Source: an uncultured Elusimicrobia bacterium | GTDB taxonomy: Bacteria > Elusimicrobiota > Elusimicrobia > UBA1565 > UBA9628 | Assembly: GCA_964600165.1 (NCBI GenBank) | Contig: CAZRIP010000002.1 | Coordinates: 16,400 to 80,399, forward strand | DNA: 64,000 nt | Direction of reading: 5' to 3' | Shown here: piece after piece, positions 8,798 through 39,815 of the stretch | Numbering within the stretch: the stretch's first letter is position 1 | How the letters are laid out: every line of letters starts with the position of its first letter | Notes under the pieces: generated by a model | Told to the model about the DNA's origin: nothing | What the model saw: the letters and a program-made list of their open reading frames with translations, nothing else | The model's database searches: none | Translations under genes and position numbers: made by a program

Positions 8798-8883
8798 GGG
8801 CAGGTGGCGGAACTGGCAGACGCAGCGGACTTAAAATCCGCGGGCCGGAAACGGTCGTGCGGGTTCGACTCCCGCCCTGCCCA
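8798..8883 (+). tRNA. tRNA-Leu(TAA)
   Basis: Acceptor stem GGGCAGG/CCTGCCC, D-arm TGGCGGAACTGGCAGACGC, anticodon stem GCGGA/TCCGC with loop CTTAAAA, long variable arm, T-loop GGTTCGACTCC. CCA is not encoded. Confidence 0.95.
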
Positions 8884-8892
8884 AGGATCTCG

Positions 8893-9540
8893 ATGGCCAA
8901 GCAAGGCATCCGTTTCGTTCTCGTAGGAGCGATCTTCGACGCGCTCGGCGTCGCCGGCGCGGCGTGGGGCGTCGTCGGACATCTCTTATCTCTTGTCGTC
9001 GCCGGAGCGATCTTGGCGGCGCTGGCCACGGTCTTCACGGCCTTCTGCGTCTATTTCTTCCGCGACCCGGAGCGCCCGTTGCCGACGGATTCGACGACGC
9101 TCTACGCGCCGGGCGACGGCCGCGTGCTGGCGATCTCCGAGGAAACGCCGGGGACGACGACGATCCGCATTTTCCTGTCGGTCTTCGACGTGCACATCCA
9201 GCGCGCGCCGTGCTCGGGCTCGGTGCGGTCCGTCGTCTATCAGCCGGGCTCTTTTCGCGCGGCGATGGTCGAGGCGGCGAAAGGCAACGAGCGCTCGATC
9301 ATGACGATCTCGCCCGAGGGCCGGCCCGACGTCGTCGTCGAGCAGATCGCCGGGCTCGTCGCGCGGCGCATCGAGACCTGGCCCAAGCAGGGCGAGCGCG
9401 TGACGATGGGCCAGCGCTACGGCATCATCTATTTCGGCTCGCAGGCGGCCGTGCATCTGCCCAAGGGCGCCGTTCCCGTCGTCAAGCCCGGCGACCGCGT
9501 CGCCGGAGCCTTGACCCCCATCGCGCGATGGACAAGCTGA
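8893..9540 (+). CDS. psd: Phosphatidylserine decarboxylase proenzyme
   Basis: FFRDPER, YAPGDG, IFLSVFDVHIQRAP, QIAGLVARRI, and YFGSQ self-cleavage motif. Confidence 0.9.
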   Translation: MAKQGIRFVLVGAIFDALGVAGAAWGVVGHLLSLVVAGAILAALATVFTAFCVYFFRDPERPLPTDSTTLYAPGDGRVLAISEETPGTTTIRIFLSVFDVHIQRAPCSGSVRSVVYQPGSFRAAMVEAAKGNERSIMTISPEGRPDVVVEQIAGLVARRIETWPKQGERVTMGQRYGIIYFGSQAAVHLPKGAVPVVKPGDRVAGALTPIARWTS

Positions 9541-10319
9541 CCCTCAAGCGCGGGGGCCAGCTCGTCGCGCCCTCGCTTTTTACGGTCGGCAACATGGCGT
9601 GCGGTTTTTACGCGCTCCTGGCTTCGCACAGAGAGGAGTTCGGCGCCGCGGCCACGGCGATCATCATCGGCATGGTCTTCGACGCGCTCGACGGCCGCGT
9701 CGCGCGCCTGGTGCACGGCGAGTCGATGTTCGGCGTCGAGTTCGACTCGCTTTCCGACTTCATGACCTTCGGCGTGGCGCCCGCGCACATGATGTACGCC
9801 TTCATCTTGAAGGACTACGGGATGTGGGGCTACCCGATCGCCTTCATCTACGCGTTGTGCGGGGCCCTGAGGCTCGCGCGCTTCAACGCCGTCGCGCACG
9901 ACTCCGGCGGCAGCAAGACGCATTTCACGGGCCTGCCGATCCCGGGCGGGGCGGGCTTCCTCTCCTCGTTCGTGCTGCTCTACCAGATCATCGAGGAAGG
10001 CCGGCCCGCGCATACGTGGAAGCTGCTGATGGACCAGGTCCCGGCGCTCTACGGCCTTTGCCCGGCGATGGTCATCATCGTCGCGTTCTTGATGGTTTCG
10101 ACGATTCCCTATCCCGCGTTCAAGCAGGCCAACGCGCTGCAACCGCGCTCGGTCAAGACCCTGCTCGGCGTGCTGCTCGCCGTTTTCCTGATCTTCATGT
10201 ACCCGCAGAACACGCTCTTCCTCGTCTTCCTTTTCTACACGCTGCTCGGTCCGGTCGGCTGGCTCGTGCGGACGGCCCTGCGGCTCTTGGGGTTTGACCG
10301 CCCGCCGGCGTCGGCCTGA
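9528..10319 (+). CDS. pssA: CDP-diacylglycerol--serine O-phosphatidyltransferase
   Basis: CDP-alcohol phosphotransferase motif DALDGRVAR...G.EFDSLSD, LRLARFN, FTGLPIP. Adjacent to psd. Confidence 0.9.
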   Translation: MDKLTLKRGGQLVAPSLFTVGNMACGFYALLASHREEFGAAATAIIIGMVFDALDGRVARLVHGESMFGVEFDSLSDFMTFGVAPAHMMYAFILKDYGMWGYPIAFIYALCGALRLARFNAVAHDSGGSKTHFTGLPIPGGAGFLSSFVLLYQIIEEGRPAHTWKLLMDQVPALYGLCPAMVIIVAFLMVSTIPYPAFKQANALQPRSVKTLLGVLLAVFLIFMYPQNTLFLVFLFYTLLGPVGWLVRTALRLLGFDRPPASA

Positions 10320-19311: not shown

Positions 19312-20676
19312 TTATGTCTTCTTGAGTGCCGTCGAGGCGCCGATGCCCGCGCCGCCGATCACGAAGGCGAGCAGCCCCAGGGGCCCGAGGCCGAGCATCG
19401 TGGCGGCGAGCGCTCCAGCCACCCAGCCGATCGATCCGCCGAGCGCGGCGTCGACCATCTTGTCGGACCAGCTCTTCTTGCCGCCGGAGCCGGCGCCGTC
19501 TCCGGGAGCCTTGGATGGAAACGCCGCGGGCGCGGCATCGGAGCGGCTGCCCGGCGTCACCGCGCCGCCGCCGGGCGCCGGAGGGGGCAAGACGGAAAGG
19601 CTCATTTGCGGGCCGCCGGGCCTCTGCTGCTCTTGGACCTTGCCCGCGTTGGCGGCGTCTTGGCAGAACTTTTGAAGGCCGGGATAGACGGCGCCGACGG
19701 CCGTCACGACGTCGGCCTGGCTCTTGATGGACTCGGGATCGGGCGCGGCGGCGCCGGCGCCGCTCTGCAGCTTGAACGCCTTGAGCTGGTCGAGGGCCGA
19801 GGCGCCGCCTGATCCGGCCGGCGAGCCGAGCAGGACGTCGCAGCCGACGTAGCCGGCGAAGGCCTTATCATCGAAGCCGAGCGGCTTCAAATAGTCGCGC
19901 AGCGGCGACTTCGAGGGATCGTCGGTGTCGTGGCGCGCGGCGTCGAGCGCGGCCGCGTGCCAATCCTTATCCGAGCTGTTGCTCGCGATCTTGGCCAGGT
20001 CGTCGGACGAGGCGATCTTCTTGATGACGGCGCGCTCGATCGGCGAGTAGCTTCGCAGCGCGGCGTCGATATCGGGGGCCGTCGACGGAGAAGGCTGAGG
20101 TTTCGGCTGAGGCGGCGGATCGGGCTGAGGCGCCGGCTTGGACTGAGGCTTGGGCTCGGGTTGCGGCTGGGGCGCCGGCTTGGGCTGCGGCTTTGGCGCG
20201 GGCGGCGCGTCGTTGGCCATCGAATCGGGAGGATGGACGATGACGAGGCTGCCCGTCGCGGACACGCCGCCCGGCGTCGAGGCTTGGCTCAACGGCATCG
20301 AGAACTTCCCGTCGTCGCGCGTGATGTCGCCGTTGGACACCGAATAATGCGAGAGCATCGTCTTGAACGTCGTTTTATACGCCGTCCAAGTCCGGCGCGG
20401 CGGCCAGGCGAACTGCCATTCGGACATCTCGAAGGGGATCTGGCTGACGCTCTCGAAGACGTAGAGCGAGGCGGAAGCGGGATGATCGGGCCCGTAGCAG
20501 TCCTTCCATCGGCACCAGACGTCGTGCGAGACCTTCTGGTCGTCGGTGAAGAATATCTCGGTCCAAGCGCCCCAGCCCTCCTCGGCGGGCGTCCACTGCG
20601 GATATTGCCGGTCCTCCGCGCGCGCGCGCGGCGCGGCCAGCCCCAGGAGCAGCGCGAGAGCGATGAGGATCCTCAT
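19312..20676 (-). CDS. Secreted Pro-rich-linker protein with C-terminal glycine-zipper-like TM hairpin (paralog A)
   Basis: Signal peptide MRILIALALLLGLAAPRARA, PQPKPA linker, C-terminus near-identical to 20753..22069. Confidence 0.75.
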   Translation of the reverse strand: MRILIALALLLGLAAPRARAEDRQYPQWTPAEEGWGAWTEIFFTDDQKVSHDVWCRWKDCYGPDHPASASLYVFESVSQIPFEMSEWQFAWPPRRTWTAYKTTFKTMLSHYSVSNGDITRDDGKFSMPLSQASTPGGVSATGSLVIVHPPDSMANDAPPAPKPQPKPAPQPQPEPKPQSKPAPQPDPPPQPKPQPSPSTAPDIDAALRSYSPIERAVIKKIASSDDLAKIASNSSDKDWHAAALDAARHDTDDPSKSPLRDYLKPLGFDDKAFAGYVGCDVLLGSPAGSGGASALDQLKAFKLQSGAGAAAPDPESIKSQADVVTAVGAVYPGLQKFCQDAANAGKVQEQQRPGGPQMSLSVLPPPAPGGGAVTPGSRSDAAPAAFPSKAPGDGAGSGGKKSWSDKMVDAALGGSIGWVAGALAATMLGLGPLGLLAFVIGGAGIGASTALKKT

Positions 20677-21520
20677 GGCCCTTTCAGGATAGGCCCGCGG
20701 GGTCGAGCTTCGCCAGTCCTGGAAGGCCTGGGCCGGCTGTGGGCCCAAAGGCCTATTTTTTCTTGTCGTCTTTCTTGAGGGCCATCGAGGCGCCGATCGC
20801 CGCGCCGCCGATGAGGAGAGCAAAAAAACCCAAGGGGCCGAGGCCGAGCATCGTCGCGGCCAGCGCCCCGGCCACCCAGCCGATCGACCCGCCGAGCGCG
20901 GCGTCGACCATCTTGTCGGACCAGCTCTTGCCCTTTCCGCCGCCGCCGGCGCCGTCTCCGGGGGCCTTGGACGGGAACGCCGCGGGCGCCGCGTCGGAGC
21001 GGCCGCCGGGCGTCACCGCGCCGGGAGAAGGCACGGGCGTGACGGAAAGGCTCATCTGCGGCAGGTTGGTATTCAAGAGTTGTTGGATCTTGCCCGCGTT
21101 GGCGGTGTCCTGGCAGAACTTCTGCAAGTTGGGATAGATCGCGCCGATGGCCGTGATGACGTCGGCCTGGCTCTTGATCGACTCGGGATTGGGCGCGGCG
21201 GCGCCGGCGGCGCTCTGCAGCCTGAACGCCTTGAGCTGGTCCATGGCCGAAGGGCCGCCCGACGAGGACGTCGGGGAGCCCAGAAGGGTGTCGCAGCCGA
21301 CGTAGGCGGCGAAGGCCTTGGCGTCGAAGCCGAGCGGCTTCAAATAGTCGCGCAGCGGCGACTTCGACGGATCGTCGGTGTCGTGGCGCGCGGCATCGAG
21401 GGCGGCCGCGTGCCAATCCTTCTCGAAGACCTTCTTGGCGATCTTTTGGAGGTCGTCGGGCGAGGCGATCTTCTTGATGATGGCGCGCTCGATCGGCGAG
21501 TAATCGCCGAGCGCGGCGTC
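19325..21520. repeat. Tandem gene-duplication repeat (~19325-20065 vs ~20775-21520)
   Basis: Long near-identical nucleotide runs, e.g. AAGCCGAGCGGCTTCAAATAGTCGCGCAGCGGCGACTTCGA near 19873 and 21327, and CCGCCGAGCGCGGCGTCGACCATCTTGTCGGACCAGCTCTT in both copies. Offset about 1.45 kb. Confidence 0.85.
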
Positions 21521-22069
21521 GACTTGCGCGTCGAGCGCCGGGGGAATCGTGGGCGTGGTCGTCGGCGGAGGCTTCGGCGGCTCTCCGGGCTTGGGCGGCG
21601 CGGGCCCGGCCGGGGCCGGCGCGCCGTCGTTGGCCATGGCCGTCGGGGCGGCGACGACGATCGAAGTGTACTTTCTCCAGTCGACGTCCGACATGTCCTT
21701 CTTGAGATCGATCGCGGGGCCCGCATGGCCGTCGTCGCGGACGATCTTGCCGTCGGCGAGCGAGTAATGCGACAGGGTCGCCGTGAAGAAGCCTCGGGCG
21801 CCCGAGCTCGGCAGCCAGCCGTCCGGCGCGTCCTTCTGCGACTGCGTTAAGACGAACAGCGGTCCCGCGGCCGGTTTGCCCGTGGGCAGGCAATCCTTGA
21901 CGCGGCAGTAGAGCTTATGGAAAACCTTGTTGTCATCCTGGAAAAAGATCATCTTCCAGTCCGACGCTTTCTCGACCTGGGCCTTGGGCCAAGTGGGATA
22001 TTGCGTGTCGGCGCGCGCGAAGGCGCAAAGCACCGACAGCAGCAGCGCGCAGAGGGGTAAGCGCTTCAT
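20753..22069 (-). CDS. Secreted Pro-rich-linker protein with C-terminal glycine-zipper-like TM hairpin (paralog B)
   Basis: Signal peptide MKRLPLCALLLSVLCAFARA, shares motifs throughout with paralog A. Confidence 0.75.
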   Translation of the reverse strand: MKRLPLCALLLSVLCAFARADTQYPTWPKAQVEKASDWKMIFFQDDNKVFHKLYCRVKDCLPTGKPAAGPLFVLTQSQKDAPDGWLPSSGARGFFTATLSHYSLADGKIVRDDGHAGPAIDLKKDMSDVDWRKYTSIVVAAPTAMANDGAPAPAGPAPPKPGEPPKPPPTTTPTIPPALDAQVDAALGDYSPIERAIIKKIASPDDLQKIAKKVFEKDWHAAALDAARHDTDDPSKSPLRDYLKPLGFDAKAFAAYVGCDTLLGSPTSSSGGPSAMDQLKAFRLQSAAGAAAPNPESIKSQADVITAIGAIYPNLQKFCQDTANAGKIQQLLNTNLPQMSLSVTPVPSPGAVTPGGRSDAAPAAFPSKAPGDGAGGGGKGKSWSDKMVDAALGGSIGWVAGALAATMLGLGPLGFFALLIGGAAIGASMALKKDDKKK

Positions 22070-25256: not shown

Positions 25257-25346
25257 CTGACGCGATTTTAACATATCCCCCCGGACGCGAAATCATTACA
25301 TGGCTTTGAAGTCTTCGTTGAGTCCCGGGTGGTATCATGCGCACTT

Positions 25347-26624
25347 ATGGAGAGCCCAAATCCGCCGCGCGCCGAGCCCAGGGACGTCTTGGAAAGGCTC
25401 AAGAGCGAAGGGACTCGCTTCGTTGAGCTTTGGTTCACGGACCTGTCGGGAAAGCCCTGGCGCGTCAACCTTCCGGCGAGCCACGTCGACGAGGCGGCTT
25501 TCGCGGAAGGGGTCACGCTCGACGGCCCGTCCACGGGCCGGCCGTGGCGCGGGCTCTTCACGCTCCTTCCCGATCCCGCGTCGTGCTTCTCGCACCCCGT
25601 GGCGAAGACGCCCACGCTCGCGATCTTCTGCGACGTGCGCGAGACCGAGTCGCGCTCGACGGCGGGGGACGCGCGCGGCGCGCTGCGGCGCGCGCAGCAG
25701 CAACTCGGCCGCTCCGGCGTCGCCGACCGGCTCGTCGTCGGCGCCGAGTGCGAGTTTTTCCTCTTGGAGGAAGCCCACGGCGCGGCCGCGTGCGAGGAGG
25801 AGGTGTGGGATTTCCTGAGGTCCCTGGCGCTCGGGCTCGAGGAAGCGGGCATCGTCGTCGAGGGCTTCCGGTACGGGCCGGCGAGCGGCCAAGGCCGCGT
25901 TCAGATGCGCTGGGATCAGTCGCTCAAGATCGCCGACCAAGTCCAACTTTATCAACACGTCGCCAAGACGATCGCGCGGCGCTCGGGCCGGGTCGCGACG
26001 TTCGTGCCCAAGCCGCTTCCCGGGTTCGGCGCGGCCTCGATGCCGGTGCACCATTCGTTGTGGATCGGCGATAAGAACCTCTTCCATAAAGACGACGGCT
26101 GGGCCCTGACGAGCGACGTCTGCCGGTGGTGGGCGGGCGGCCTCTTGGCGCACGCCCCGTCGCTTCTCGCGTTCTGCTCGCCGACGGTCAACTCATACCG
26201 GAGATTGAGCGTTCCCGGATCGCCCACGGCGCTCGTCTTGTCTCGCGCGAAGGCGGAGGCGGCTTGCCGCATCCCCGCGCGCTTCATCGAGCCCCGGGCG
26301 CGCCGGCTCAAGTTCCGGCTCTGCGACGCGAGCGTCAATCCCTACTTGGCCTTCGCGGCCATGCTGATGGCGGGCCTCGACGGAGTGATGCGCAAGCTCG
26401 ACCCGCCGCTCGAGGACGCGCGAAGCCCGTTTTTCCTTCCGCGCTCGCTCGACGAGGCGCTGGAAGCGCTCGAGACGGACCACGCCTTTCTCGAGGAGGG
26501 CGGCGTCTTCGCGCCCGAGTTGATCTCCGCGTGGATCTCGCAACGCCGTCAAAGCCAAGTCGACGCGTTGCGGGCGTTGCCGCATCCGATGGAGCGTCTG
26601 CTCCAAATAGATCACGGGTTCTGA
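25347..26624 (+). CDS. Glutamine synthetase type I-like protein, catalytically degenerate
   Basis: GSI scaffold present (FVELWFTDLSGK, GAECEFFL, ATFVPKP, PTVNSYRRL, NPYLAFAAMLMAGLDG, LDEALEAL, HPME). Many metal, ATP and glutamate ligands are substituted. Confidence 0.85.
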   Translation: MESPNPPRAEPRDVLERLKSEGTRFVELWFTDLSGKPWRVNLPASHVDEAAFAEGVTLDGPSTGRPWRGLFTLLPDPASCFSHPVAKTPTLAIFCDVRETESRSTAGDARGALRRAQQQLGRSGVADRLVVGAECEFFLLEEAHGAAACEEEVWDFLRSLALGLEEAGIVVEGFRYGPASGQGRVQMRWDQSLKIADQVQLYQHVAKTIARRSGRVATFVPKPLPGFGAASMPVHHSLWIGDKNLFHKDDGWALTSDVCRWWAGGLLAHAPSLLAFCSPTVNSYRRLSVPGSPTALVLSRAKAEAACRIPARFIEPRARRLKFRLCDASVNPYLAFAAMLMAGLDGVMRKLDPPLEDARSPFFLPRSLDEALEALETDHAFLEEGGVFAPELISAWISQRRQSQVDALRALPHPMERLLQIDHGF

Positions 26625-26639: not shown

Positions 26640-27347
26640 ATGATCATGGCCGCGCATCAGCCGAACTTCCTGCCGTGGCTCGGTTTCTTCGACAGGATGC
26701 GCCAAGCCGACGTGTTCGTGATCGTCGACCACGTGCAGTTCGAGCGGCAGAACTATCAAAACCGCGTGCTGATCAAGACCGACGGCGGGCCGCGCTGGAT
26801 CACGGTGCCCGTCCAGCAGCGCGCGCGCGAGGAGACCATCCTTGAGAAGAGGATCTGCGCCGACGCAGGAGGCAAGCACGATTGGCGCCGCCGCTTGTCG
26901 CGCACGCTCGAGCAGTCTTACGCTCGAGCGCCGCATTTCAAGGAATACGCGAGGCCGTTCTTGGAGCAGCTGTCGGCTCCGGGAGAGAGCTTGGTCGAGC
27001 TCAACGTGCGCATGATCGAGACGGCGATGCGCTCCCTCGGCATCGAGAAGCGGCTCGTGCGCAGCTCGACGCTCGCCATCACCGGAGCCAAGTCGGACAT
27101 GGTCCTCAACCTCTGCAAGGCCGTCGGAGCCGACGCGTACTTGGCCGGGCTCGGCGGCTCGCATCAGTACCTCGACGAGGCGGCGTTCAAGGAGGCCGGC
27201 GTCGAGGTGCGGTGGCAGCGATTCGAGCATCCGGTCTACCCGCAGGAGCCGTCCGTCGTCCCGTTCGCCCCGGGGCTCTCGGTCATAGATCTTCTCGTCA
27301 ACTGCGGGCCGCGCAGCGGCAGCGTCATCGCGGGGAGGCCGTCGTGA
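26640..27347 (+). CDS. WbqC family protein
   Basis: AHQPNFLPWLGFFDRM..AD.FVIVDHVQF..QNYQNRV.I, HYARAP, CKAVGADAYL.G, GLSVIDLL.NCG. Confidence 0.9.
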   Translation: MIMAAHQPNFLPWLGFFDRMRQADVFVIVDHVQFERQNYQNRVLIKTDGGPRWITVPVQQRAREETILEKRICADAGGKHDWRRRLSRTLEQSYARAPHFKEYARPFLEQLSAPGESLVELNVRMIETAMRSLGIEKRLVRSSTLAITGAKSDMVLNLCKAVGADAYLAGLGGSHQYLDEAAFKEAGVEVRWQRFEHPVYPQEPSVVPFAPGLSVIDLLVNCGPRSGSVIAGRPS

Positions 27348-28030
27348 CCAACAAGACCGACAAGGCGGCCGGCGAAGCCGTCAAGTTCGACGGGATGCGC
27401 CTGGACGCGCGCTATACCGGCAAGACGGTGCTCGTTTTAGGAGCGCACCCCGACGATATGGAGCTGGGCGTCGGGGGAACGATCGCGCGGCTGTCCAAGG
27501 TCGCGCGGGTGATCATGGCGATCGTCGGCGTGCCGAGCAAGCTCGACATCCGGCTGGCCGAGGCCGCGCGCTCGGCCGCGATCTTGGGCGCCGAGCTCAC
27601 GGTGCTCGTGCCGGACGCTTGCTGCCGCGTCGAGGATCTGAAGACCTACGAGCTCGTCGGCATGCTCGACGCGCTGGTCGAGCGGTTTCAGCCGGCGCTG
27701 ACGCTCTCGCACGGCCCGTCGGACTTTCATAAGGACCATACGCTCGTGTTCAACGCCTGCGTGGCCATGCAGCGGCTCGCGTCATTCGACGTGCTCTGCT
27801 ATCGTCCGACGGCCACCCGCCCGACGAGCGTCGGGTTCCAGCCGGAGCTCTTCGTCGACATCTCGGACACGATCGACGTCAAGATGGACGCCATCGCCGC
27901 TCACGAAAGCCAGTTCGCCGCGCGCGGCCTTCCGATCGAGTCTTTCCGCGACCAGGCCCGGGACTACGGCCGCGCCGTCGGCGTGACGTTCGCCGAGGCG
28001 CTCGAAGTCAGCCGGCTGGTCTTCACTTGA
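27344..28030 (+). CDS. PIG-L / LmbE family deacetylase
   Basis: AHPDDMELG and HKDH metal motifs, FVDISDTIDVK..AIAAHESQF. GTG start overlaps the wbqC stop. Confidence 0.85.
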   Translation: MTNKTDKAAGEAVKFDGMRLDARYTGKTVLVLGAHPDDMELGVGGTIARLSKVARVIMAIVGVPSKLDIRLAEAARSAAILGAELTVLVPDACCRVEDLKTYELVGMLDALVERFQPALTLSHGPSDFHKDHTLVFNACVAMQRLASFDVLCYRPTATRPTSVGFQPELFVDISDTIDVKMDAIAAHESQFAARGLPIESFRDQARDYGRAVGVTFAEALEVSRLVFT

Positions 28031-29055
28031 TCATGGACCCGATGGTCACCGTCGTCATCCCTTGCCGAAACGAGGCCCCGTTCATCCGCTTGGTGATCGA
28101 GTCGGTCCTGCGCAGCGCGTATCCCCGCGAGCGGTTCGAGGTCCTGTTCGTCGACGGGATGAGCACCGACGGGACGAGAGGGATCCTCGCGGCGACCGCG
28201 AAAGACCGCTCCTTCATCCGCGTCCTCGACAACCCGAGGCGCGTCACGCCCGCGGGGATGAACGTCGGCATCAAGGCGGCGCGCGGCGAGATCATCGTTC
28301 GTCTGGACGCGCACTCCTCCTACGACGCCGACTACATACCGCGCTGCGTGCGTTTATTGCTGTCGGGCGATCGCATCGGCAGCGCCGGGGGGCGCAGCGT
28401 CATCGTTCCCAACGGCGACGGCCCGTGGGCAAAGGCCGTCGCGTTCGTGACCGCCCACCGCTTCGGCATGGGGGGAGGAGCCTACAAAGCCAGCTTGCGC
28501 CCCGGCGCCGTCGATACCGTGGCGCTGGGCACTTTCCGGCGCGAGGTCCTCGAGAGCGTCGGCCTGTACGACGAGCGCCTCACGCGCAATCAGGACAACG
28601 AGCTCCACGCGCGCCTCAAGAGAGCCGGATACTCCGTCATTTACGACCCCGCGATCATCATGTATTACCGCAACCAGGCGACGCTCAAGGGACTCGTGCG
28701 TCAAGGCTACCGGGCGAGCAAGTGGAACGTCTACACGCTCGTGCTCCATCCATACACTTGGAAGCTCAGGCGCTTCGTGCCGATGCTCTTCGTCGTCTAC
28801 TTGGCCGCGCTCGGCGCCGCGGCTTGGAGACGCCCTGATCTCCTGCCGGCGGCGGCCGCGCCGCTGGGCCTTTACGCGTTGATGGCCGCGGCGTTCTCCC
28901 TGACCGGCGGCAGGACCGCGGCGGACCGGCTGCGCGTCGGGGCGACGTTCGTCTCTTACCATTTGGCGTACGGCGTCGGACCGTTCATCGGGCTGCTCAA
29001 CGTGCTGACCGGCCGCTGGCGGGAGCATCTGGGCCGCCCCTTCGGCGAGATTTGA
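28027..29055 (+). CDS. Glycosyltransferase family 2 (ExoA-like)
   Basis: VTVVIPCRNE, VDGMSTDGT, RLDAH, YDERLTRNQDNE, C-terminal TM helices. Confidence 0.9.
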   Translation: MIMDPMVTVVIPCRNEAPFIRLVIESVLRSAYPRERFEVLFVDGMSTDGTRGILAATAKDRSFIRVLDNPRRVTPAGMNVGIKAARGEIIVRLDAHSSYDADYIPRCVRLLLSGDRIGSAGGRSVIVPNGDGPWAKAVAFVTAHRFGMGGGAYKASLRPGAVDTVALGTFRREVLESVGLYDERLTRNQDNELHARLKRAGYSVIYDPAIIMYYRNQATLKGLVRQGYRASKWNVYTLVLHPYTWKLRRFVPMLFVVYLAALGAAAWRRPDLLPAAAAPLGLYALMAAAFSLTGGRTAADRLRVGATFVSYHLAYGVGPFIGLLNVLTGRWREHLGRPFGEI

Positions 29056-29064: not shown

Positions 29065-30213
29065 ATGAACGACAGCGTGCCATTTCATAAAGCGTGCTTG
29101 GGCGAAGACGAGCTTTCCGAGGTCTCGGCCGCGATCAAGTCCGGCTGGATCACGATGGGGCCGAAGACCGTCGAGTTCGAGGAGCGCTTCAAGGCGTATC
29201 TTTGCGCGCGCTCCGGGCGCGCGCCGTCCGAGCTCTACGCCTTGTGCGTCAGCTCGGCGACGGCGGCGCTGCATTTGGCGCTCAAGGCCGTCGGCCTCGA
29301 TCGCGGCGACGAGGTGATCCTTCCGACCAATACCTTCATCGCCACGGCCGAGGTCGTCACCTACTTCGGCGCCGTGCCGGTGCTCAGCGATATCGAAGAG
29401 GACACGCACAACATGTCCGTCTCGTCTCTCGAGAGCCTGATCACGCCTCGGACCAAGGCGATCATTCCCGTCCATTTCGGCGGCCAGCCATGCGACATGG
29501 ACGAGATCATGGCGCTGGCCAAGCGCCGCGGGTTGGTCGTTATCGAGGACGCCGCCCACGCGCTGCCGAGCGAGTATAAGGGGAAAGTCGTCGGCGTCAT
29601 CGGCGATCTCACCTGCTTCAGCTTCTATGCCACGAAGACCCTGGCGATGGGCGAAGGCGGGATGGTCGTTACCGCCGACCAGAAATACGCGGAGCGCGTG
29701 CGCATCAACCGGCTCCACGGGATCAGCCGCGACGCGTGGGATCGCTACAGCCTCACCGGCGACTGGTATTACGAGGTCGTCGACAACGGCTTCAAGTACA
29801 ACGCGACCGACATCAACGCCGCGTTGGGCTTGGCGCAGTTGAGGAAGTTGGACGCCATGAACGAGGCTCGCGCGAAGATCGCGTCCTCCTACGACGGCGC
29901 GTTCGCCGGGTCGCGCGTGACGCCCGCGACCGTCCGGTCCGATCGGGCCAGCAGCCGCCACCTTTACGTCATCAAGGTCTCCAACCGCGACGAGCTCTAC
30001 CGCAAGCTCAAGGAGGACGGCATCGGCACGTCCGTCCATTTCATCCCCGTGCATAAGCATCCCCATTACCGTTCGGCCTACGGCTATCAGGACGCGGCGT
30101 ATCCGGTCGCCAACCGCGTCTTCGAGCGGGCGTTGTCTTTGCCCATCTACCCTGATATGACGCGCGAGCAAGTCGAACGCGTCTGCGAGGGCGTCTTGCG
30201 CCATGCCCGATAG
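29065..30213 (+). CDS. DegT/DnrJ/EryC1/StrS family sugar aminotransferase
   Basis: SSATAALHLAL, VIEDAAHA, FSFYATKTL..GEGG (PLP Lys), GFKYN. Confidence 0.92.
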   Translation: MNDSVPFHKACLGEDELSEVSAAIKSGWITMGPKTVEFEERFKAYLCARSGRAPSELYALCVSSATAALHLALKAVGLDRGDEVILPTNTFIATAEVVTYFGAVPVLSDIEEDTHNMSVSSLESLITPRTKAIIPVHFGGQPCDMDEIMALAKRRGLVVIEDAAHALPSEYKGKVVGVIGDLTCFSFYATKTLAMGEGGMVVTADQKYAERVRINRLHGISRDAWDRYSLTGDWYYEVVDNGFKYNATDINAALGLAQLRKLDAMNEARAKIASSYDGAFAGSRVTPATVRSDRASSRHLYVIKVSNRDELYRKLKEDGIGTSVHFIPVHKHPHYRSAYGYQDAAYPVANRVFERALSLPIYPDMTREQVERVCEGVLRHAR

Positions 30214-30823
30214 CGTCTACGCCCGCCGCCTCAAGCGCGCGCTCGACGCCGGGGCGGCGCTGGTCGGCCTGGTCGTCGTCGGCCCGCTCATGCTGCTCGT
30301 CGCCGCGGCCATCAAGCTCCTCGACCCCGGACCCGTGCTCTTCCGCCACCAGCGCGTCGGCCTGCGCGGCAAGCCGTTCGCGATCCTCAAGTTCCGCACG
30401 ATGCGCGCGGGCGCGGAGAAAGAAGGCCCGCAGATCACGTCCGGCGGCGACGCGCGCGTGACGAGGCTCGGCCGGCTCTTGCGGCGCACGAAGGTCGACG
30501 AGCTCCCGCAGCTCGTCAACGTGCTGCGGGGGGACATGAGCCTCGTCGGACCGCGCCCGGAGGTTCGGCACTACGTCGAGCTCTTCCGGGACGACTACGA
30601 CGTCATCCTGTCGGTGCGGCCCGGCATCACGGACTATGCGGCCATCAAGTACCGCGACGAAGAGGCGACGCTCGGAGCCTATCAGGACGCGGAGCAAGGC
30701 TACGTGACCGAAGTTCTGCCCGACAAGATCGCGTTATATCACCGCTACATCTCCGAGGTAGGCTTCGCGACCGACGCGCGAATTCTTCTCGCGACCCTCG
30801 CCAAGGTCCTCGTCCGGCACTGA
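30203..30823 (+). CDS. Bacterial sugar transferase (monotopic phosphoglycosyl transferase, PglC-like)
   Basis: KRALD, FRHQRVG, KFRTM, LRRTKVDELPQLVNVLRGDMSLVGPRPE, RPGITD. Confidence 0.92.
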   Translation: MPDSVYARRLKRALDAGAALVGLVVVGPLMLLVAAAIKLLDPGPVLFRHQRVGLRGKPFAILKFRTMRAGAEKEGPQITSGGDARVTRLGRLLRRTKVDELPQLVNVLRGDMSLVGPRPEVRHYVELFRDDYDVILSVRPGITDYAAIKYRDEEATLGAYQDAEQGYVTEVLPDKIALYHRYISEVGFATDARILLATLAKVLVRH

Positions 30824-30888: not shown

Positions 30889-32055
30889 ATGGCCATCCCG
30901 TTCCACCGGCGTGGCATTGATAGACGGAAGATTCGTTCCCGGCGCGGCCTCGACACTCGCAACGTGCGGCCCGCCGACCTGCTGAACCGCCGGGTGATCT
31001 CCCTCGACACATCGAGCATCGCCCGGTCGATCGAAGACAAAGTGGTCGTCGTGACGGGCGCCGGCGGCACCATCGGCGGCGAGTTGGCGCGCCAGGTCCT
31101 CCGCTATAAGCCGAAGAAGCTCATCCTGCTCGAGAACAACGCGACCGCGTTGTTCTATTGCGAATCGGAACTGAGGGCGCGGCGAACCCCCGCGCAGATC
31201 GAGGCCGTGTTGGGCGATATCCGCGATCGTGGTCTCGTCGACCAGATTCTGCGCGAGAACCGTCCGCATACGCTGTTCCACGCGGCGGCCCATAAGCACG
31301 TCCACCAGCTAGAGACGAACGTCTATGAGGGCGTCAGCAACAACCTGCTCGGGACCTATCACCTCGCCCTCGCGGCCGAGCGGCACGGCGTCGAGACTTT
31401 CCTTTTCATCTCGACCGACAAGGCCGTCCGCCCGCGCTGCGTGATGGGGGCGACCAAGCGCGCCGCCGAGATCACGCTGTTGAACCTGGCGCGCGCGAGC
31501 AAGACCCGCTACGTCGCCGTGCGCTTCGGCAACGTGCTCGGCAGCTCGGGCTCCGTGCTCAAGATATTCCAAGAGCAGATCGAAAAGGGCCTGCCCCTGA
31601 CGATCACGCACCCGGAGGCCGCGCGCTACTTCATGACGGTCGAGGAGGCGGTCGGTCTCGTGCTGCAGACTTCGCTCTTGGCCGGCAGCGGCGACATCTG
31701 CATGCTCAAGATGGGCTCCCCGGTGCGCATCATCGACTTGGCGCACCGCTTGATCCGCATGTCCGGGCTCGTGCCCGATCGCGACGTCAAGATCCGCGTC
31801 ACCGGGCTCAAGCCCGGCGAGAAAGTGGCGGAAGAGCTCATTGAAGAGCTAAAAGAACTGCATCAATCAGAGCATCCGGATATCATGATCGTGCGTTCCG
31901 AAGACGGCCTCGTGCGCGACCTCAAGGAAAGGCTGGCGCGACTCGAGACGATGAGCCTGGGCTGTTGGGCCAAGGCCGACGTCATCGGGGCCTTGGCTCG
32001 TCTCGTTCCGACTTACGTCCCGGACCCCGTGCACGGCTTGGCTCAAAATTGCTGA
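30889..32055 (+). CDS. UDP-GlcNAc 4,6-dehydratase (PglF/CapD/WbpM type), catalytic domain only
   Basis: DLLNR, VVTGAGGTIGGEL, HAAAHKHV, ISTDKAV, MGATK, VRFGNVLGSSGSV, RYFMT, GLKPGEK. No N-terminal TM region. Confidence 0.88.
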   Translation: MAIPFHRRGIDRRKIRSRRGLDTRNVRPADLLNRRVISLDTSSIARSIEDKVVVVTGAGGTIGGELARQVLRYKPKKLILLENNATALFYCESELRARRTPAQIEAVLGDIRDRGLVDQILRENRPHTLFHAAAHKHVHQLETNVYEGVSNNLLGTYHLALAAERHGVETFLFISTDKAVRPRCVMGATKRAAEITLLNLARASKTRYVAVRFGNVLGSSGSVLKIFQEQIEKGLPLTITHPEAARYFMTVEEAVGLVLQTSLLAGSGDICMLKMGSPVRIIDLAHRLIRMSGLVPDRDVKIRVTGLKPGEKVAEELIEELKELHQSEHPDIMIVRSEDGLVRDLKERLARLETMSLGCWAKADVIGALARLVPTYVPDPVHGLAQNC

Positions 32056-35397: not shown

Positions 35398-36597
35398 ATG
35401 AAGGCCAAGCGCGGGAAGCTTCTGCTCATCGCACCCGTCGACGCGCGCATGCTCCGCCTGTCGCGCGAGCTCTCGCGCGATTGGGAGCTCCATTCTCGCT
35501 GGCCCGCGGAGGCTCCTTTGGGCGCGCCGAAGGAGCTCCTTTCCCGGGAGAGCTATTCCGCGATCCTTCTGGCCGACGACCCCCGCGCGCGCGGCTGCGT
35601 CGGCCCGCTGCGCCGGTTCACAACGGCGCCCATCGTCTTTATTAAGGGAGAGCCCGCCTCGCCCGGCGCGCCCGCGGCGCCGCGTTCCGGCGAACGCTCC
35701 GATCAGGCGATCTCGGTCGCCGCCGAGATCTGGTCGTTCGCCCGCGCCGAGCGCGCGTGGCTCAATCGACGTCTTTCTTCGCTCGTCGCGCCGCGGGCGC
35801 CGCGGTCCGCGGGATTGACGAGCATCGTCATCCCGTGCCTTGACAAGCTCGACTACACGCGCAAATGCCTCGAGAGCGTGGCCCTTCACACGAGTCTCCC
35901 GCACGAGGTCATCGTCGTCGACAACGGCTCGCGCGACGGCACGGCGGCCTACGTCCGGAGCCGCCGTCGCGTGCGTCTCATCCGCAATCGCGAGAACCTC
36001 GGCTTCGCGCGCGCGGTCAACCAGGGCATGCAGGCGGCTACGGGTCGCTACGTCGTCTGGCTCAACAACGACGCCGTCGTGACGCCCGGCTGGCTGGAGG
36101 GGCTCATAGGCTGCGCGGAACGCTCGCCGTGGATCGGCGCCGTCGGTCCGTGCACCAACGAAGCCGTGGGCTATCAGCGCGTCGAGTCCCCATCCTACCG
36201 CGGCGGCGACGGACTGCTGGCGTTTTCCCAGGCTTGGTCGCTGCGGCACCGGGGCCGCTCCATCGCCGCGCACCGCCTGACGGGGTTTTGCTTGCTGCTC
36301 AAGAGCGAGGTGATCAAGCAGATCGGGCTCCTCGACCCGCGCTTTTCGCCCGCCTGCTACGAGGATTTCGACTACTGCTTGCGGATCCGTCAGGCCGGTT
36401 ATGAGCTCGCTTGCGCGCTCGACGTCTACGTCCATCACGACGGGCATCAAAGCTACGCGAGCCGCGACGCGATGCTGCGCCAATCGGCGGCCAGCCGCGA
36501 GATCTTCCTGGATAAATGGTGTCACCAAGCGCTGAGCCTGCTCGACGACCTCGACGCCGAAGCCGCGCGCGTCCACGCCCGCCGAGCGCGGGGGTGA
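35398..36597 (+). CDS. Glycosyltransferase family 2 with extra N-terminal domain
   Basis: TSIVIPC, VVDNGSRDGT, ENLGFA..VNQG, WLNND, GFCLL, YEDFDYCLR. About 135 extra residues at the N-terminus. Confidence 0.88.
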   Translation: MKAKRGKLLLIAPVDARMLRLSRELSRDWELHSRWPAEAPLGAPKELLSRESYSAILLADDPRARGCVGPLRRFTTAPIVFIKGEPASPGAPAAPRSGERSDQAISVAAEIWSFARAERAWLNRRLSSLVAPRAPRSAGLTSIVIPCLDKLDYTRKCLESVALHTSLPHEVIVVDNGSRDGTAAYVRSRRRVRLIRNRENLGFARAVNQGMQAATGRYVVWLNNDAVVTPGWLEGLIGCAERSPWIGAVGPCTNEAVGYQRVESPSYRGGDGLLAFSQAWSLRHRGRSIAAHRLTGFCLLLKSEVIKQIGLLDPRFSPACYEDFDYCLRIRQAGYELACALDVYVHHDGHQSYASRDAMLRQSAASREIFLDKWCHQALSLLDDLDAEAARVHARRARG

Positions 36598-37772
36598 AGC
36601 CGGGCGTCCTGGTGGTGATCCCCCGCATCATCTACCCCGCCGTCAGCGGCGGAGAGTTGCGCGTCTACTCGCTGTTGCGCCGGTTGTCGGGCCGCTATCG
36701 CTTCTCCCTGCTGACGTTCATCGAGCCCCGCGCGCGGGCGCAGAGCCTGGCGGCGGCCATGAGCCTGGAGAAGAGCCTCGTCGAGAGGGTCCACTGCGTG
36801 GAGCGTTCTCCGTCGCCTCGGCTCGTGGAGGGAACGGCGCTCCCGTCGGACTTCTACCGCTCGCGCGAGCTCGCCCGCGGCTTGCGCGCGATCTTGGCGC
36901 GAGGAGGCACGGACCTCGTTCAGATCGAGTTCGCCGAGATGGCGCAGTACGCGCGCGACGCCGGCGGCCGCGTGCCGGTCGTGCTCACAGAGCACGACAC
37001 GAGCGTGCTGTCTCGCGACCGCTCCTACTTGCGGAAAGCGCTCGGCGCGCGGACGCTGCGCCGGCAGCGCGCTTATCATCGCCGCGCGCTCTCGCGCTGC
37101 GACCGGGTCGTCGTGATGTCCGAGGCCGATCGCGAGCGGATGGCCGAGTTCGTCGACGCGCGGCGGCTGTGCGTCGTCCCGACGGGCGTCGATCTCGAGC
37201 AATTCCCGGTCGCGCCGTGGGCGGGGCGGCGCGGACGCACCATCGTTTTCGTCGGACACTATCTCCATTACCCGAACCAGGACGCCGCCGTGCGCTTGCG
37301 GCGGGAGATCCTGCCGCGCGTCGCCCGGCGCGCGCCGGGCGCGAGGCTCTTGCTGGTAGGCTCCGGCGTCACCGGCGCCGTGCGCGCGCTGGCCGGGCCT
37401 TCCGTGCGGGTCACCGGTCCCGTGGAGTCCGTGCACCCGTTTTTGGCCGGGGCGAAGGTCTTCGCCGCGCCTATGCGCTTGGGCCACGGCATCAAGGGCA
37501 AGCTGCTCGAAGCCTTCGCGGCCGGCGTCCCGGTCGTCGCGTCGACGCAGGCCTGCGAGGGGATCCCGCAGGCCAAGCACGGCGAGCACCTGCTGCAAGC
37601 CGACGACCCGGAGCGGTTCGCGGGGCACGTCGCGCGCCTGCTGGTCGACCCGGCGCTGGGCCGCTCGTTGGCGCGCGCGGCGCGCGCGCTGGTCGAGAGA
37701 CACTTCCGATGGGAACAATCGGCGGCGCGCCTGGATCGCCTCTACAAGGACTTGCTCGATGCGCGCGCTTAG
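36594..37772 (+). CDS. Glycosyltransferase family 4
   Basis: GGELRVYSL, VPTGVD, FVGHY.HYPNQDA, APMRLGHGIKGKLLEAFAAG.PVV. Confidence 0.88.
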   Translation: MKPGVLVVIPRIIYPAVSGGELRVYSLLRRLSGRYRFSLLTFIEPRARAQSLAAAMSLEKSLVERVHCVERSPSPRLVEGTALPSDFYRSRELARGLRAILARGGTDLVQIEFAEMAQYARDAGGRVPVVLTEHDTSVLSRDRSYLRKALGARTLRRQRAYHRRALSRCDRVVVMSEADRERMAEFVDARRLCVVPTGVDLEQFPVAPWAGRRGRTIVFVGHYLHYPNQDAAVRLRREILPRVARRAPGARLLLVGSGVTGAVRALAGPSVRVTGPVESVHPFLAGAKVFAAPMRLGHGIKGKLLEAFAAGVPVVASTQACEGIPQAKHGEHLLQADDPERFAGHVARLLVDPALGRSLARAARALVERHFRWEQSAARLDRLYKDLLDARA

Positions 37773-38679
37773 CCTTTATCCTCCCGGCCGCCGCCGCGCC
37801 TTGGCGCGCTCCTTCGCGTCGGCGCGCCCCTTCAAGCACGTCGTCATCGACGATTTCTTCGCCCCCGGATTCTGCCGGCGCCTGGCGAAGGATTTCCCGA
37901 AGTACGACCGCGCGCGCTTCCTCAACGAGCACGGCGACCCGGGGAAAGCGCACCACGAGGCGCTGCGGCGGCTGGGTCCGGCCTTCCGCGCGCTCGACGA
38001 CGCGCTTCGCTCTCCCGCGTTCATCGGGCTCATCGAGGACATCTCCGGCATCGACGGCCTGCTCTTCGATCCCTCGTATTTCGGCGGCGGGACGCACGAG
38101 AACCTCGACGACATGGAGCTGTTTCCGCACGTCGACTTCAACTGCCGCGGCGGCCTGCACCGCCGTTTGAACCTGCTGATCTATCTCAATCCCGTCTGGC
38201 GCGCGGAGTGGGGAGGCTCGCTGCAGCTCCACGAGAACGCCTGGCCGGCGCGCCGCGACGACCGCGTCAAGACCGTCGCGCCGCTGATGAACCGGTGCGT
38301 CATGTTCGAGACGACCGACCGGTCTTGGCACGGCTTCGAGCGCCTGCGTCTTCCTCCGGGCGAGCGCGTCTCGCGCCGCTCGATCGCGCTCTATCTTTAC
38401 TCGAAGAGCCCGGCCGCGGGCGTGGCCCCGATCCCGCCGGACCTGACGATGTTCGTCGACCGGCCGCTGCCCGAGCGCTTCAAGCAGGCCGGACGCGCGC
38501 TGTCGGCCGAGGACGCGCGCGAGCTGGAGCGGCTGGTGGTCGAGCGCGACCGGCGCATCGAGTATCTTTACGGCCGCGCGTTGGATTGGTACCGAAGAGC
38601 CGTGCGCGGCGAGGCCGTCTCGGGCATGCTGGATGAGGCGGCGGAGCGCGTGCGCCGCCTGCGCCGAGGACGCGCGTGA
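37759..38679 (+). CDS. 2-oxoglutarate/Fe(II)-dependent oxygenase
   Basis: PFKHVVIDDFF, GGGTH, HVD facial-triad motif, RRLNLLIYLN..W..EWGG.L, SWHGF, RRSIALY. Confidence 0.85.
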   Translation: MRALSLYPPGRRRALARSFASARPFKHVVIDDFFAPGFCRRLAKDFPKYDRARFLNEHGDPGKAHHEALRRLGPAFRALDDALRSPAFIGLIEDISGIDGLLFDPSYFGGGTHENLDDMELFPHVDFNCRGGLHRRLNLLIYLNPVWRAEWGGSLQLHENAWPARRDDRVKTVAPLMNRCVMFETTDRSWHGFERLRLPPGERVSRRSIALYLYSKSPAAGVAPIPPDLTMFVDRPLPERFKQAGRALSAEDARELERLVVERDRRIEYLYGRALDWYRRAVRGEAVSGMLDEAAERVRRLRRGRA

Positions 38680-39815
38680 GGCGGGCTCCCAAGGACGTCT
38701 CTTTCGTGCTCAAGCAACTGGACCGCTGGGTCGCGGCCGGCGTCCGAAAGCTCGGCGGCGAAGGCGCGCGCCCGGAGCCGATCCGCGAGCTCCACGTGGA
38801 GCTGACCCACCGCTGCGACCTCAAGTGCGTGATGTGCCACCATTGGGAGATGCCCGCTCGCGATCCGGGCTCCGTCGAGCGGGAGTTGACGCCGCGGCAG
38901 CTCGACGCGATCGCGGGACGTTCGCGCCTGCTGCGCGCGGTCCAGTTCGTCGCCGTGACGGGAGGGGAGCCGTGGGTGCGGCCCGACGCCGTCGACGTCG
39001 TCGCCGTGCTGCGGCGGCGGTTCCCTCGCGCGTCTCTCGGCGTGCTGACCAACCTTTGGAACACCGGCCTCCTGCGCCGCAAGCTCGGCGAGCTCGCCGA
39101 CCGCGGCGTCGAGCGCTATTGGCTGGGCTCGTCGCTGGACGGCCTGGGCGCCACGCACGACCGCGTGCGCGGGCAGCCCGGCGCCTTCAAGGGCTTCGAG
39201 CGCACGCTGGCGATGCTCCGCAAGGAGTTTCCGAAGGTCGACGTCTCGGTGAACTTCACGATCCTGCCGGACAACGCCGGCGAGCTGTGGGACGTCTACT
39301 CATTCGCCAAGGGCAACGGTCTGGGCTTCGGAGCGCAATTCGTGGTCGAGCACGAGGGTCTCCCGGCGCCGAAGGCCTTTTCTTGGAAGCCCGCCCAGTT
39401 GGCGCGCGTCGAGGCGCAGATCGACCGGATCCTCGAGGACATCGCCCGCTCCGAGCAGGCGCTGATGCGGCTCGTGACGGCGCCGCCCTCTCAGTCGCGC
39501 GGGCTGTGGAACCGGCTCCTGTTTTGGAAGTACCTGCGCCGGCACGGGCGCGGCTCGCCGCGATTCTTCGACGACTGCATGGCCGGCGAGCGCTACGCGA
39601 TGCTCGATCCCGAGGGCAACCTGTTCTTCTGCCCGGTCAACAAGCACAAGACGGTCGGCAACGTGCGCGACGACGGCTTCGACGCCGTCTGGCGCTCCGC
39701 CCGCGCCGGGCGCGTGCGCGGCGAGCTGATTCCCTGCCAGTGCCGCTGCTGGCTCAACTGCATCGCCAACCCGATCCTCGATCGGGTCACGCGGCTGGCT
39801 CTCGACGATGCCTAG
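38676..39815 (+). CDS. Radical SAM protein with C-terminal SPASM/twitch-like Cys cluster
   Basis: CDLKCVMC (CX3CX2C), TGGEPW, SLDG...HDRVRG, then C.AG..Y..LDPEG.LFFCP...VGNV and CQCRCWLNC. Confidence 0.88.
   Translation: MRRAPKDVSFVLKQLDRWVAAGVRKLGGEGARPEPIRELHVELTHRCDLKCVMCHHWEMPARDPGSVERELTPRQLDAIAGRSRLLRAVQFVAVTGGEPWVRPDAVDVVAVLRRRFPRASLGVLTNLWNTGLLRRKLGELADRGVERYWLGSSLDGLGATHDRVRGQPGAFKGFERTLAMLRKEFPKVDVSVNFTILPDNAGELWDVYSFAKGNGLGFGAQFVVEHEGLPAPKAFSWKPAQLARVEAQIDRILEDIARSEQALMRLVTAPPSQSRGLWNRLLFWKYLRRHGRGSPRFFDDCMAGERYAMLDPEGNLFFCPVNKHKTVGNVRDDGFDAVWRSARAGRVRGELIPCQCRCWLNCIANPILDRVTRLALDDA

Follow-up and report, generated by a model that had tools for sequence, protein, structure and literature searches.

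The 64,000-nucleotide stretch analysed here (hereafter the window), part of contig CAZRIP010000002.1 of an uncultured Elusimicrobia bacterium, carries a gene for a glutamine synthetase (GS)-like protein, followed directly by genes for a WbqC-family protein and an LmbE/PIG-L family de-N-acetylase. The gene belongs to a conserved clade that is under purifying selection and is not decaying, and the fold of GS is retained in its product while most of the metal ligands are not.

The GS-like gene and its product

The GS-like open reading frame (ORF) and its two domains are placed as follows.

25347-26624, + strand: GS-like ORF, 425 residues; alternative starts at GTG 25329 and TTG 25389
about 25413-25640, + strand: N-terminal beta-grasp domain
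about 25665-26597, + strand: C-terminal catalytic-type domain

The frame is uninterrupted up to the stop codon at 26622-26624, which bears out the full-length, frameshift-free ORF given in a preliminary description of this DNA. The database gene call begins at TTG 25389, but the conserved N-terminal helix is better accommodated by a start at ATG 25347. GC content at third codon positions (GC3) is 0.86, comparable to that of the neighbouring genes.

Both Pfam domains of the enzyme family are matched (Gln-synt_N, 5.4e-11; Gln-synt_C, 5.5e-70), and the nearest solved structure by sequence (phmmer against PDB chains) is GlnA1 of Mycobacterium tuberculosis (E-value 1.5e-74). Scores against the curated models are 297 bits for TIGR00653 GlnA (cut-off 429), 243 for the PRK09469/NF007006 GlnA model (cut-off 845), 166 for gamma-glutamylputrescine synthetase NF045547 (cut-off 650) and 159 for the GSIII model (cut-off 470). 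An AlphaFold model of the monomer, built from an alignment of 52 clade sequences, has a predicted local distance difference test (pLDDT) score of 94.2 and superimposes on the GS structures PDB 2wgs and 2bvc with a template modelling (TM) score of about 0.90; this comparison with type-I structures, proposed in the preliminary description, shows the fold to be kept. By descent the protein is a type-I GS homologue, a GSI-beta-type paralogue of GlnA.

The former active site

Residues are numbered as in the E. coli/Salmonella enzyme, transferred by way of the conserved motifs, and the alignments used were those of phmmer to PDB chains and a MAFFT alignment of 120 sequences. In canonical GS the n1 metal is bound by E131, E212 and E220, and the n2 metal by E129, H269 and E357. 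The corresponding segments of the window protein are these.

25740-25757, + strand: GAECEF, with the surviving metal-ligand glutamates E129 and E131 (E134 and E136 in the ORF)
25866-25907, + strand: FRYGPASGQGRVQM in place of HHHEVAxxGQxEI; R175 at H210/H211, E212 lost, R184 at E220
26025-26051, + strand: FGAASMPVH in place of DNGSGMHxH; Gly at N264, P233 at H269, H271 kept (H235)
26301-26318, + strand: RRLKFR in place of (K/R)R(I/V)EFR; K322 at E357, R355 kept as R320, R359 as R324

Two of the six metal ligands (E129 and E131) are therefore left, and E212, E220, H269 and E357 are gone. The register at E212 is ambiguous, the position being occupied by Y176 without a gap and by G177 in the MAFFT alignment; both are non-acidic. 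The Tyr179 loop, N264 and the Glu327 flap, all features of the ammonium and glutamate pocket, are absent, and D50 and R321 are present.

Most of this had been proposed in the preliminary description from a manual alignment, and both alignments reproduce it: the kept glutamates of GAECEF; the change of HHHEVA to FRYGPA with loss of E212; of GQNEV to GQGRV, where Arg184 takes the place of E220; of DNGSGMH to FGAASMP, with Gly and Pro233 for N264 and H269; of PGYEAP to PGSPT (VPGSPT in the window protein), with loss of E327; the loss of RNRS and with it R339 (the segment is AKAE); and the change of RIEVR to RLKFR, with K322 for E357. R321, R344 and R359 are retained, as R286, R308 and R324. The reported loss of the GGYF loop corresponds to a deletion of approximately 40-45 residues that takes out the (K/E)GYFP Tyr179 loop, and the Tyr segment of the adenylylation loop is likewise missing. 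Realignment does not bring the metal ligands back: four of the six stay lost.

Judged from these residues, canonical GS chemistry is excluded for this protein. Its role is almost certainly other than glutamine synthesis, because the metal site has been lost within a conserved fold and because the family sits beside amino-sugar-modifying genes.

Conservation and selection in the clade

A homologue search over 5.8 billion proteins found approximately 70 clusters at 45-69% identity to the window protein, followed by canonical GlnA at 38-42%. In a neighbour-joining tree the clade is monophyletic with respect to canonical GlnA and divides into four subclades. It is a small family, with only about half a dozen clusters in a library of 1.84 billion proteins clustered at 50% identity. 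Named members and matches to GTDB genomes are nearly all from metagenome-assembled genomes (MAGs) of Elusimicrobiota, plus one labelled Myxococcales.

The replacements in the former active site are shared across the clade. Among 72 aligned members, E129 and E131 are invariant (72/72), Arg stands at E220 in all 72 and Lys at E357 in 71, Arg is found at H210 in all 72 and Pro at H269 in 65, and H271 is kept in every one. The motif (F/Y)R(T/Y/F)GPxxGQGRVQM replaces HHHEVAxxGQxEI, and R175, G177, P178, R184, Q186 and M187 are invariant within it; xGxxGMPxH replaces DNGSGMHxH, and RRxKF replaces (K/R)RxEF. E129, E131, H271, R344 and R355 show strict invariance. Over 21 positions lining the former active site, of which 15 are invariant, conservation averages 0.93; the protein as a whole averages 0.64. 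Other positions vary: R359 is Cys in 46 of the 72, R339 is Arg in 32 of the 72, S53 is variable, and the adenine contacts are mostly replaced, Y125 by Val/Thr, F225 by Ala, S273 by Ala and K352 by Ala/Gly.

The ratio of nonsynonymous to synonymous substitution rates (dN/dS; Nei-Gojobori, pairs with unsaturated dS) is 0.05-0.26 for the GS-like gene. For the same genome pairs it is 0.28-0.34 for WbqC and 0.09-0.20 for PIG-L, so that the GS-like gene is constrained at least as strongly as WbqC and about as strongly as PIG-L. A dN/dS analysis across orthologues had been suggested in the preliminary description, and its outcome is purifying rather than relaxed selection.

One relative, in an Elusimicrobiota MAG described as complete (CP096137.1, locus L007), has a frame shift in a G-run at about 9995-10005, where ...GRPVSEG gives way to EVWEFLR...; the cause is an indel in the assembly or, alternatively, the gene is a real pseudogene in that genome. 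A long-form subclade of 490-515 residues (P0004, P0005, P0009, P0034, P0039, P0045, P0049, P0056-P0059, P0062 and P0243; loci L030 and L031) has a conserved N-terminal extension of approximately 95 residues (..DFPxEGELVxSPHYxIRV...YDWxGY..G.H...AR..). Only insignificant matches to Big_7 and GlgX_C were found for this extension, which is probably an Ig-like domain.

Two candidates were rejected as members. P0241, the best match in the search of the representative library, is an unusual predicted protein of 4424 residues with six GS modules in tandem that look canonical (HHEVAPGQYEI, GSGMHVHQS, RIEYR), with two beta-grasp-like segments before each. A Streptomyces locus (L013) was picked up by an out-of-frame match to the GQGRVQMR pattern and encodes an ordinary GlnA4/PuuA-type ligase with intact ligands. 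In the literature, no paper was found on the clade, on a GS pseudoenzyme of this type, or on a GS-like partner of WbqC.

The operon in the window

The genes that follow the GS-like gene lie on the same strand with gaps of -11 to +65 nt.

25268-25296, + strand: sigma-70-like pattern TTAACA-17-AATCAT in the 73-nt gap between the divergent holB and GS-like genes; a consensus match only
26640-27347, + strand: WbqC-family protein, 235 residues (PF08889, 8.9e-69), with a GGAGG ribosome-binding site upstream
27344-28030, + strand: LmbE/PIG-L family de-N-acetylase, AHPDD and HxDH zinc motifs intact; alternative start at ATG 27395
28027-29055, + strand: family-2 glycosyltransferase (GT2) with a hydrophobic C-terminal region, overlapping the PIG-L stop by 4 nt
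29065-30213, + strand: DegT/PglE/PseC-type sugar aminotransferase
30203-30823, + strand: small PglC-type phosphoglycosyl transferase (Bac_transf)
30889-32055, + strand: CapD/PglF-type UDP-N-acetylhexosamine 4,6-dehydratase (Polysacc_synt_2)

The 15-nt gap between the GS-like gene and wbqC was confirmed. A -10 element of its own had also been ascribed to the GS-like gene; a sigma-70-like site does exist in the divergent gap, but as a mere pattern match, with two such sites found in the region against 0.5 expected, and the calls of promoters and terminators do not rise above chance. The best matches of the de-N-acetylase are BshB1 in NCBIfam and BshB (6p2t) in the PDB. Its GTG at 27344 is preceded by GGAGG (window 27334-27347) and overlaps the WbqC stop as GTGA. 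PIG-L probably begins here rather than at ATG 27395, and the overlap implies translational coupling to WbqC.

No PglD-type acetyltransferase is present in the window operon. A tblastn search of the 64-kb window with two canonical GlnA sequences matched only the GS-like ORF, and an Rfam scan of 22-34 kb found no glnA/glutamine riboswitch and no other leader.

Elsewhere in the window, a second glycan-type cluster at 35398-41688 (+ strand) encodes a GT2, a GT4, a 2-oxoglutarate-Fe(II) oxygenase, a radical S-adenosylmethionine/SPASM protein and a double-GT2 protein. At 19312-22069 (- strand) there are tandem paralogues of 503 and 438 residues with signal-peptide-like N-termini and Pro-rich linkers; their common C-terminal region ends in a hydrophobic anchor, and the 438-residue protein, the one of the two that was scanned, has no Pfam match.

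Gene neighbourhoods in relatives

Approximately 22 non-redundant loci, drawn from collections of genomes and metagenomes, were examined; about 19 had enough flanking sequence to be informative. In two of high GC content (L004 and L014), greedy ORF calling produced spurious antisense ORFs, and those calls were not used. A WbqC gene, a PIG-L gene or both directly adjoin the GS-like gene in 15 of the approximately 19 informative loci, so the adjacency to wbqC that the preliminary description had singled out for checking does recur. The association is seen in three of the four subclades and on both sides of the deepest split, and is therefore probably ancestral. Cassette genes overlap or are 4-15 nt apart, and their commonest order is WbqC, PIG-L, an Arg-rich ORF of 49-57 codons, the GS-like gene and a further PIG-L.

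The cassette is usually embedded in N-acetylhexosamine (HexNAc) polysaccharide loci. These also hold a GH18 enzyme, a GlmU-like nucleotidyltransferase, TPR proteins, a processive GT2 resembling synthases of chitin or poly-N-acetylglucosamine, UDP-GlcNAc 2-epimerase and a TPR-CE4 deacetylase. The gene had been described as heading an amino-sugar biosynthesis operon. It does head the operon in the subclade of the window, but most relatives carry it in mid-cassette within HexNAc exopolysaccharide loci; the linkage to wbqC and amino-sugar genes stands, with WbqC and LmbE/PIG-L, not DegT or CapD, as the tightest partners.

The small Arg/Glu-rich ORF (49-57 residues) lies directly upstream of the GS-like gene, often overlapping its start, in at least six loci, and has the core ..(E/N)HERR.R....E.R..RK.RR.. 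in its product. It was located at the positions below; L010, L016 and L021 also have it, in the interval from the upstream PIG-L to the GS-like gene.

L024, 9835-10008: micro-ORF
L026, 9846-10004: micro-ORF
L030, 9723-9872: micro-ORF

The product is reminiscent of small basic proteins that bind GS, namely cyanobacterial IF7 and archaeal sP26. A regular-expression search found no homologue of it in the window.

In the same three loci, a conserved pair of small ACT-domain genes, divergent from the WbqC, PIG-L and GS-like cassette, lies upstream of it; the window has no such genes. The pair suggests amino-acid-responsive control of the locus.

L024, 7579-8234, - strand: ACT-domain genes
L026, 7562-8241, - strand: ACT-domain genes
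L030, 7425-8107, - strand: ACT-domain genes

WbqC and its partners

The 'wbq' gene names are presumably derived from the O-antigen cluster of E. coli O121. The model of the window WbqC (pLDDT 91.5) has a HUP-type Rossmann fold, of the class that includes class-I aminoacyl-tRNA synthetases and nucleotidyltransferases. In a fold search its top solved match was BshC, the enzyme presumed to add cysteine in bacillithiol synthesis (4wbd; probability 0.99, TM 0.42, E-value 1.8e-3), with further matches to pantothenate synthetase, HldC and TyrRS. The relation to BshC is tentative, since it lacks a link at the level of sequence and comes from a single fold search.

Where WbqC has a third partner besides PIG-L, the partner varies. 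A cluster common to plasmids of a Firmicute (Bacillus thuringiensis pHS18-1, L032) and an Actinobacterium (Mycobacterium branderi, L033), at about 1-10000 in each, has the order sugar dehydrogenase, DegT, epimerase, DegT, FemAB-like GNAT, WbqC, PIG-L, TIM-barrel protein and MFS transporter, and has the appearance of a pathway whose product, an N-aminoacyl amino sugar, is exported. In Streptomyces vietnamensis the order is UDP-galactopyranose mutase (UGM), WbqC, DegT, NTP transferase and a MurG-like protein, and a published Streptomyces operon reads ProRSx, GT4, WbqC, lmbE, tRNA(ProX) and murG (PMC10404621); beyond that paper, nothing relevant to the function of WbqC was found in the literature. 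The third partner is thus a FemAB-like transferase in Bacillus and Mycobacterium, a prolyl-tRNA synthetase (ProRS) paralogue with a tRNA in Streptomyces, or the GS-like protein. All three partner families normally handle an amino acid for amide-bond formation. O-antigen sugars commonly carry amide-linked amino acids; E. coli O121, with its N-acetylglycine, is one case (PMC7685785). Activity of BshC has yet to be reconstituted, and the suspicion is that a partner or an activated donor is missing (PMC5790435).

The resemblance of WbqC to BshC and the tRNA in the Streptomyces operon make tRNA genes near the cassettes worth noting. No tRNA genes were found within the cassettes, save two on the opposite strand, the placement of which is possibly a coincidence.

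L001, 6070-6143, - strand: tRNA-Cys(GCA), 23 nt beyond WbqC in what is the closest orthologous locus
L031, 13557-13633, - strand: tRNA-Glu(CTC), just after a chitin-synthase-like GT2

Proposed role of the GS-like protein

The reading that we favour, tentatively and at somewhat less than even confidence, assigns the GS-like protein, as a metal-free accessory subunit that binds a ligand or acts as a scaffold, to a cassette for the de-N-acetylation and re-acylation of amino sugars. Arg184 and Lys322 would occupy the former metal positions and pair as R184-E136 and K322-E134, as expected from the residues they replace: in the canonical enzyme E220 and E131 bind the n1 metal, and E357 and E129 the n2 metal. 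Arg184 and Lys322, with R175, R308 and R320, would form a basic, metal-free pocket, and its former entrance for glutamate and ammonium would be wider now that the Tyr179 loop and the Glu327 flap are gone. That this pocket is a ligand site rather than a dead cavity is suggested by its being the most conserved part of the protein, which also argues against a purely passive scaffold. The partners would be WbqC, BshC-like with a Rossmann fold of the class-I synthetase type, and one or two LmbE/PIG-L de-N-acetylases. As a HexNAc-rich surface glycan is being made, the cassette would most likely exchange the N-acetyl group of an amino sugar for a different acyl or an aminoacyl group, with the GS-like protein holding an anionic substrate (an amino acid or a diphosphate-linked sugar) or scaffolding or gating the enzymes. 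In this scheme the salt bridges in place of metals, the ligand, direct contact of the GS-like protein with its two partners and the reactions of the cassette are inferred.

Several observations weigh against this proposal. Four or five clade loci lack both partners: neither WbqC nor PIG-L occurs within 8-10 kb of the GS-like gene in L002/L005, L009/L020, L011 and L014, and in L031 the gene lies between a CE4 deacetylase and a PilZ/chitin-synthase-like GT2, again without either partner; the GS-like protein can therefore function without such neighbours. Conversely, WbqC and PIG-L are widespread without the GS-like gene, with WbqC beside PIG-L, DegT aminotransferases or both in Bacillus, Mycobacterium, Streptomyces and other genomes (a metagenome contig reads GT2, PIG-L and WbqC, for example), so WbqC does not generally require it. 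WbqC gives no profile-level match to PDB sequences or to the Pfam BshC model. The predicted pairing of Arg and Lys with the glutamates derives from the metal-ligand map of canonical GS, and the strict invariance of E129, E131, H271, R344 and R355 would also fit retained catalysis.

Retained catalysis is the substance of the first alternative, which we consider unlikely: a re-tooled carboxylate-amine ligase or transferase that would make an amide on the amine exposed by PIG-L, e.g., by gamma-glutamylation of a GlcN or 4-amino-sugar residue. The fixed Arg and Lys would take over the electrostatics of the lost metals, and loss of the loop and flap would admit a bulky sugar amine. GS paralogues often switch amine substrate, as PuuA, GlnA3 and GmaS do, and here the pocket is the most conserved region, E129, E131, H271, R321, R344 and R355 are retained, and one or two adjoining de-N-acetylases yield just the amine that a GS-type ligase uses. 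The slot directly upstream of WbqC, which in Bacillus and Mycobacterium holds the FemAB-like aminoacyl transferase, is here taken by the GS-like gene, and the window operon has no PglD-type acetyltransferase for the DegT product. On the other hand, four of the six metal ligands are gone, and we know of no GS- or ATP-grasp-type ligase that works without divalent metals. Neither Y125, F225, S273 and K352 nor R359 is conserved across the clade, and adenine contacts so poorly conserved speak against a ligase that depends on ATP; every curated ligase model also scores far below its cut-off. The preliminary description had offered either a non-catalytic scaffold, sensor or regulator or a neofunctionalised amide ligase linked to sugar N-acylation. 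A non-canonical, maintained and wbqC-linked protein is upheld, while the two alternatives cannot be separated on sequence.

A second alternative, to which we give a rather low probability, is a sensor of nitrogen or amino acids, or some other regulator of exopolysaccharide synthesis, the pocket of which would bind Gln, Glu or a sugar nucleotide without chemistry and signal through protein-protein contacts, possibly with the Arg-rich micro-protein. Canonical GS itself regulates by protein contacts (GS with TnrA and GlnR in B. subtilis, IF7/IF17 in cyanobacteria). The conserved basic micro-ORF that abuts the gene in at least six loci, the two divergent ACT-domain genes beside the cassette, and the members that adjoin PilZ-type or chitin-synthase-like synthases with no WbqC are in keeping with such a role. 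However, N264, E327, Y179 and R359, which contact glutamate and ammonium in GS, have been lost or vary, the operon-internal, translationally coupled position is more typical of a pathway component, and the window has neither micro-ORF nor ACT genes.

A further, improbable reading is that the GS fold has become a metal-free catalytic or substrate-presenting module, with Arg and Lys at the metal positions, that joins a BshC-like WbqC in forming the amide on the de-N-acetylated sugar. Enzymes of the WbqC/BshC type would then generally depend on a second protein to handle the amino acid. Here that would be the GS-like protein, and elsewhere the FemAB-like transferase (Bacillus, Mycobacterium) or the ProRS paralogue and its tRNA (Streptomyces). 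This would be a concrete lead on the unsolved BshC reaction.

It is very improbable that the protein, itself without catalysis, assembles into the dodecamer of housekeeping GlnA as a modulatory subunit. The active sites of GS form between neighbouring subunits, and the GS-I fold and the D50-loop aspartate, which serves the site of the neighbouring subunit, are kept; but the gene is linked to glycan genes and not to nitrogen-regulation genes, neither the window nor any of the loci examined has a canonical glnA close by, and identity of the clade to canonical GlnA is no more than 35-42%. A decaying relic without function, for which the lost catalytic residues and the frameshifted L007 relative might speak, is effectively refuted by the conservation data, given the intact ORF with native codon usage (GC3 0.86), the confident model, the identical replacements in approximately 70 clusters, a dN/dS like that of the adjacent enzymes and the hyper-conserved pocket.

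Implications

GS is among the oldest and best-studied of enzymes, and its paralogues are normally presumed to be ligases. The clade is a clean natural case of active-site repurposing under selection, in which the fold is kept and the metal sites have turned into conserved basic residues. Annotation of its members as 'glutamine synthetase' assigns nitrogen-assimilation capacity wrongly to Elusimicrobiota MAGs. The widespread WbqC, the LmbE deacetylases and the GS-like protein make up a three-part candidate cassette that would remodel surface glycans at their N-acyl groups, and it bears on which partner or activated donor the BshC-type enzymes need.

Comparison with known systems

The GS-like protein shares the two-domain fold of type-I GlnA (M. 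tuberculosis GlnA1, 2bvc; S. typhimurium/E. coli GlnA) at a TM score of 0.90, and keeps E129/E131, H271, R321, R344, R355, D50 and the NPYLAFAA...GLDG helix. It differs in having four of the six metal ligands replaced, in lacking the Tyr179 loop, Glu327 and the adenylylation loop, and in a genomic setting of glycan synthesis rather than nitrogen assimilation.

The GS paralogues PuuA, GlnA3/GlnA4, GmaS and IpuC act on new amines with metal ligands and ATP site kept and the ammonium pocket altered. They are the natural analogy if the GS-like protein joins an acid to a sugar amine, but the clade has lost the metal ligands and its nucleotide contacts are not conserved; the GlnA4/PuuA-type protein of Streptomyces locus L013 retains TELEF, GQHEI, NSCHIHLS and RFENR, and the clade does not. 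Lengsin of the vertebrate lens has a GS-I-type fold that has lost its catalytic residues and GS activity and serves a structural role. The GS-like protein resembles it in keeping the fold without the catalytic residues, and its gene is under purifying selection; unlike lengsin it is bacterial, embedded in operons, marked by a fixed pattern of Arg and Lys for metal, and of independent origin.

In the synthesis of bacillithiol (BSH; BshA, BshB, BshC) and mycothiol (MSH; MshA, MshB, MshC), a GlcNAc conjugate made by a glycosyltransferase is deacetylated by an LmbE-family enzyme and an amino acid is then added by a Rossmann-type enzyme; the proposed cassette would follow the same logic. The window PIG-L, with its intact zinc motifs, best matches BshB, and the best fold match of the WbqC model is BshC. 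The glycosyltransferase of the window is a GT2, unlike the GT4 of BSH and MSH synthesis, and WbqC, at approximately 235 residues, lacks the coiled-coil domain of BshC and any match to it at the sequence level; its context with the GS-like gene is that of polysaccharide loci and not of thiol metabolism. We know of no GS-like partner in BSH or MSH synthesis.

The Wbp/Vim pathway of Porphyromonas and Tannerella takes off the N-acetyl group of a sugar and puts on Ser or Gly, with deacetylation by VimE followed by aminoacyl transfer by VimA, a sequence that has experimental backing (PMC7468200). The replacement of N-acetyl proposed for the cassette is alike in this respect, but the enzymes are not the same: Wbp/Vim uses a CE4 deacetylase and a GNAT/FemAB-like transferase, whereas the cassette described here consists of PIG-L, WbqC and the GS-like protein.

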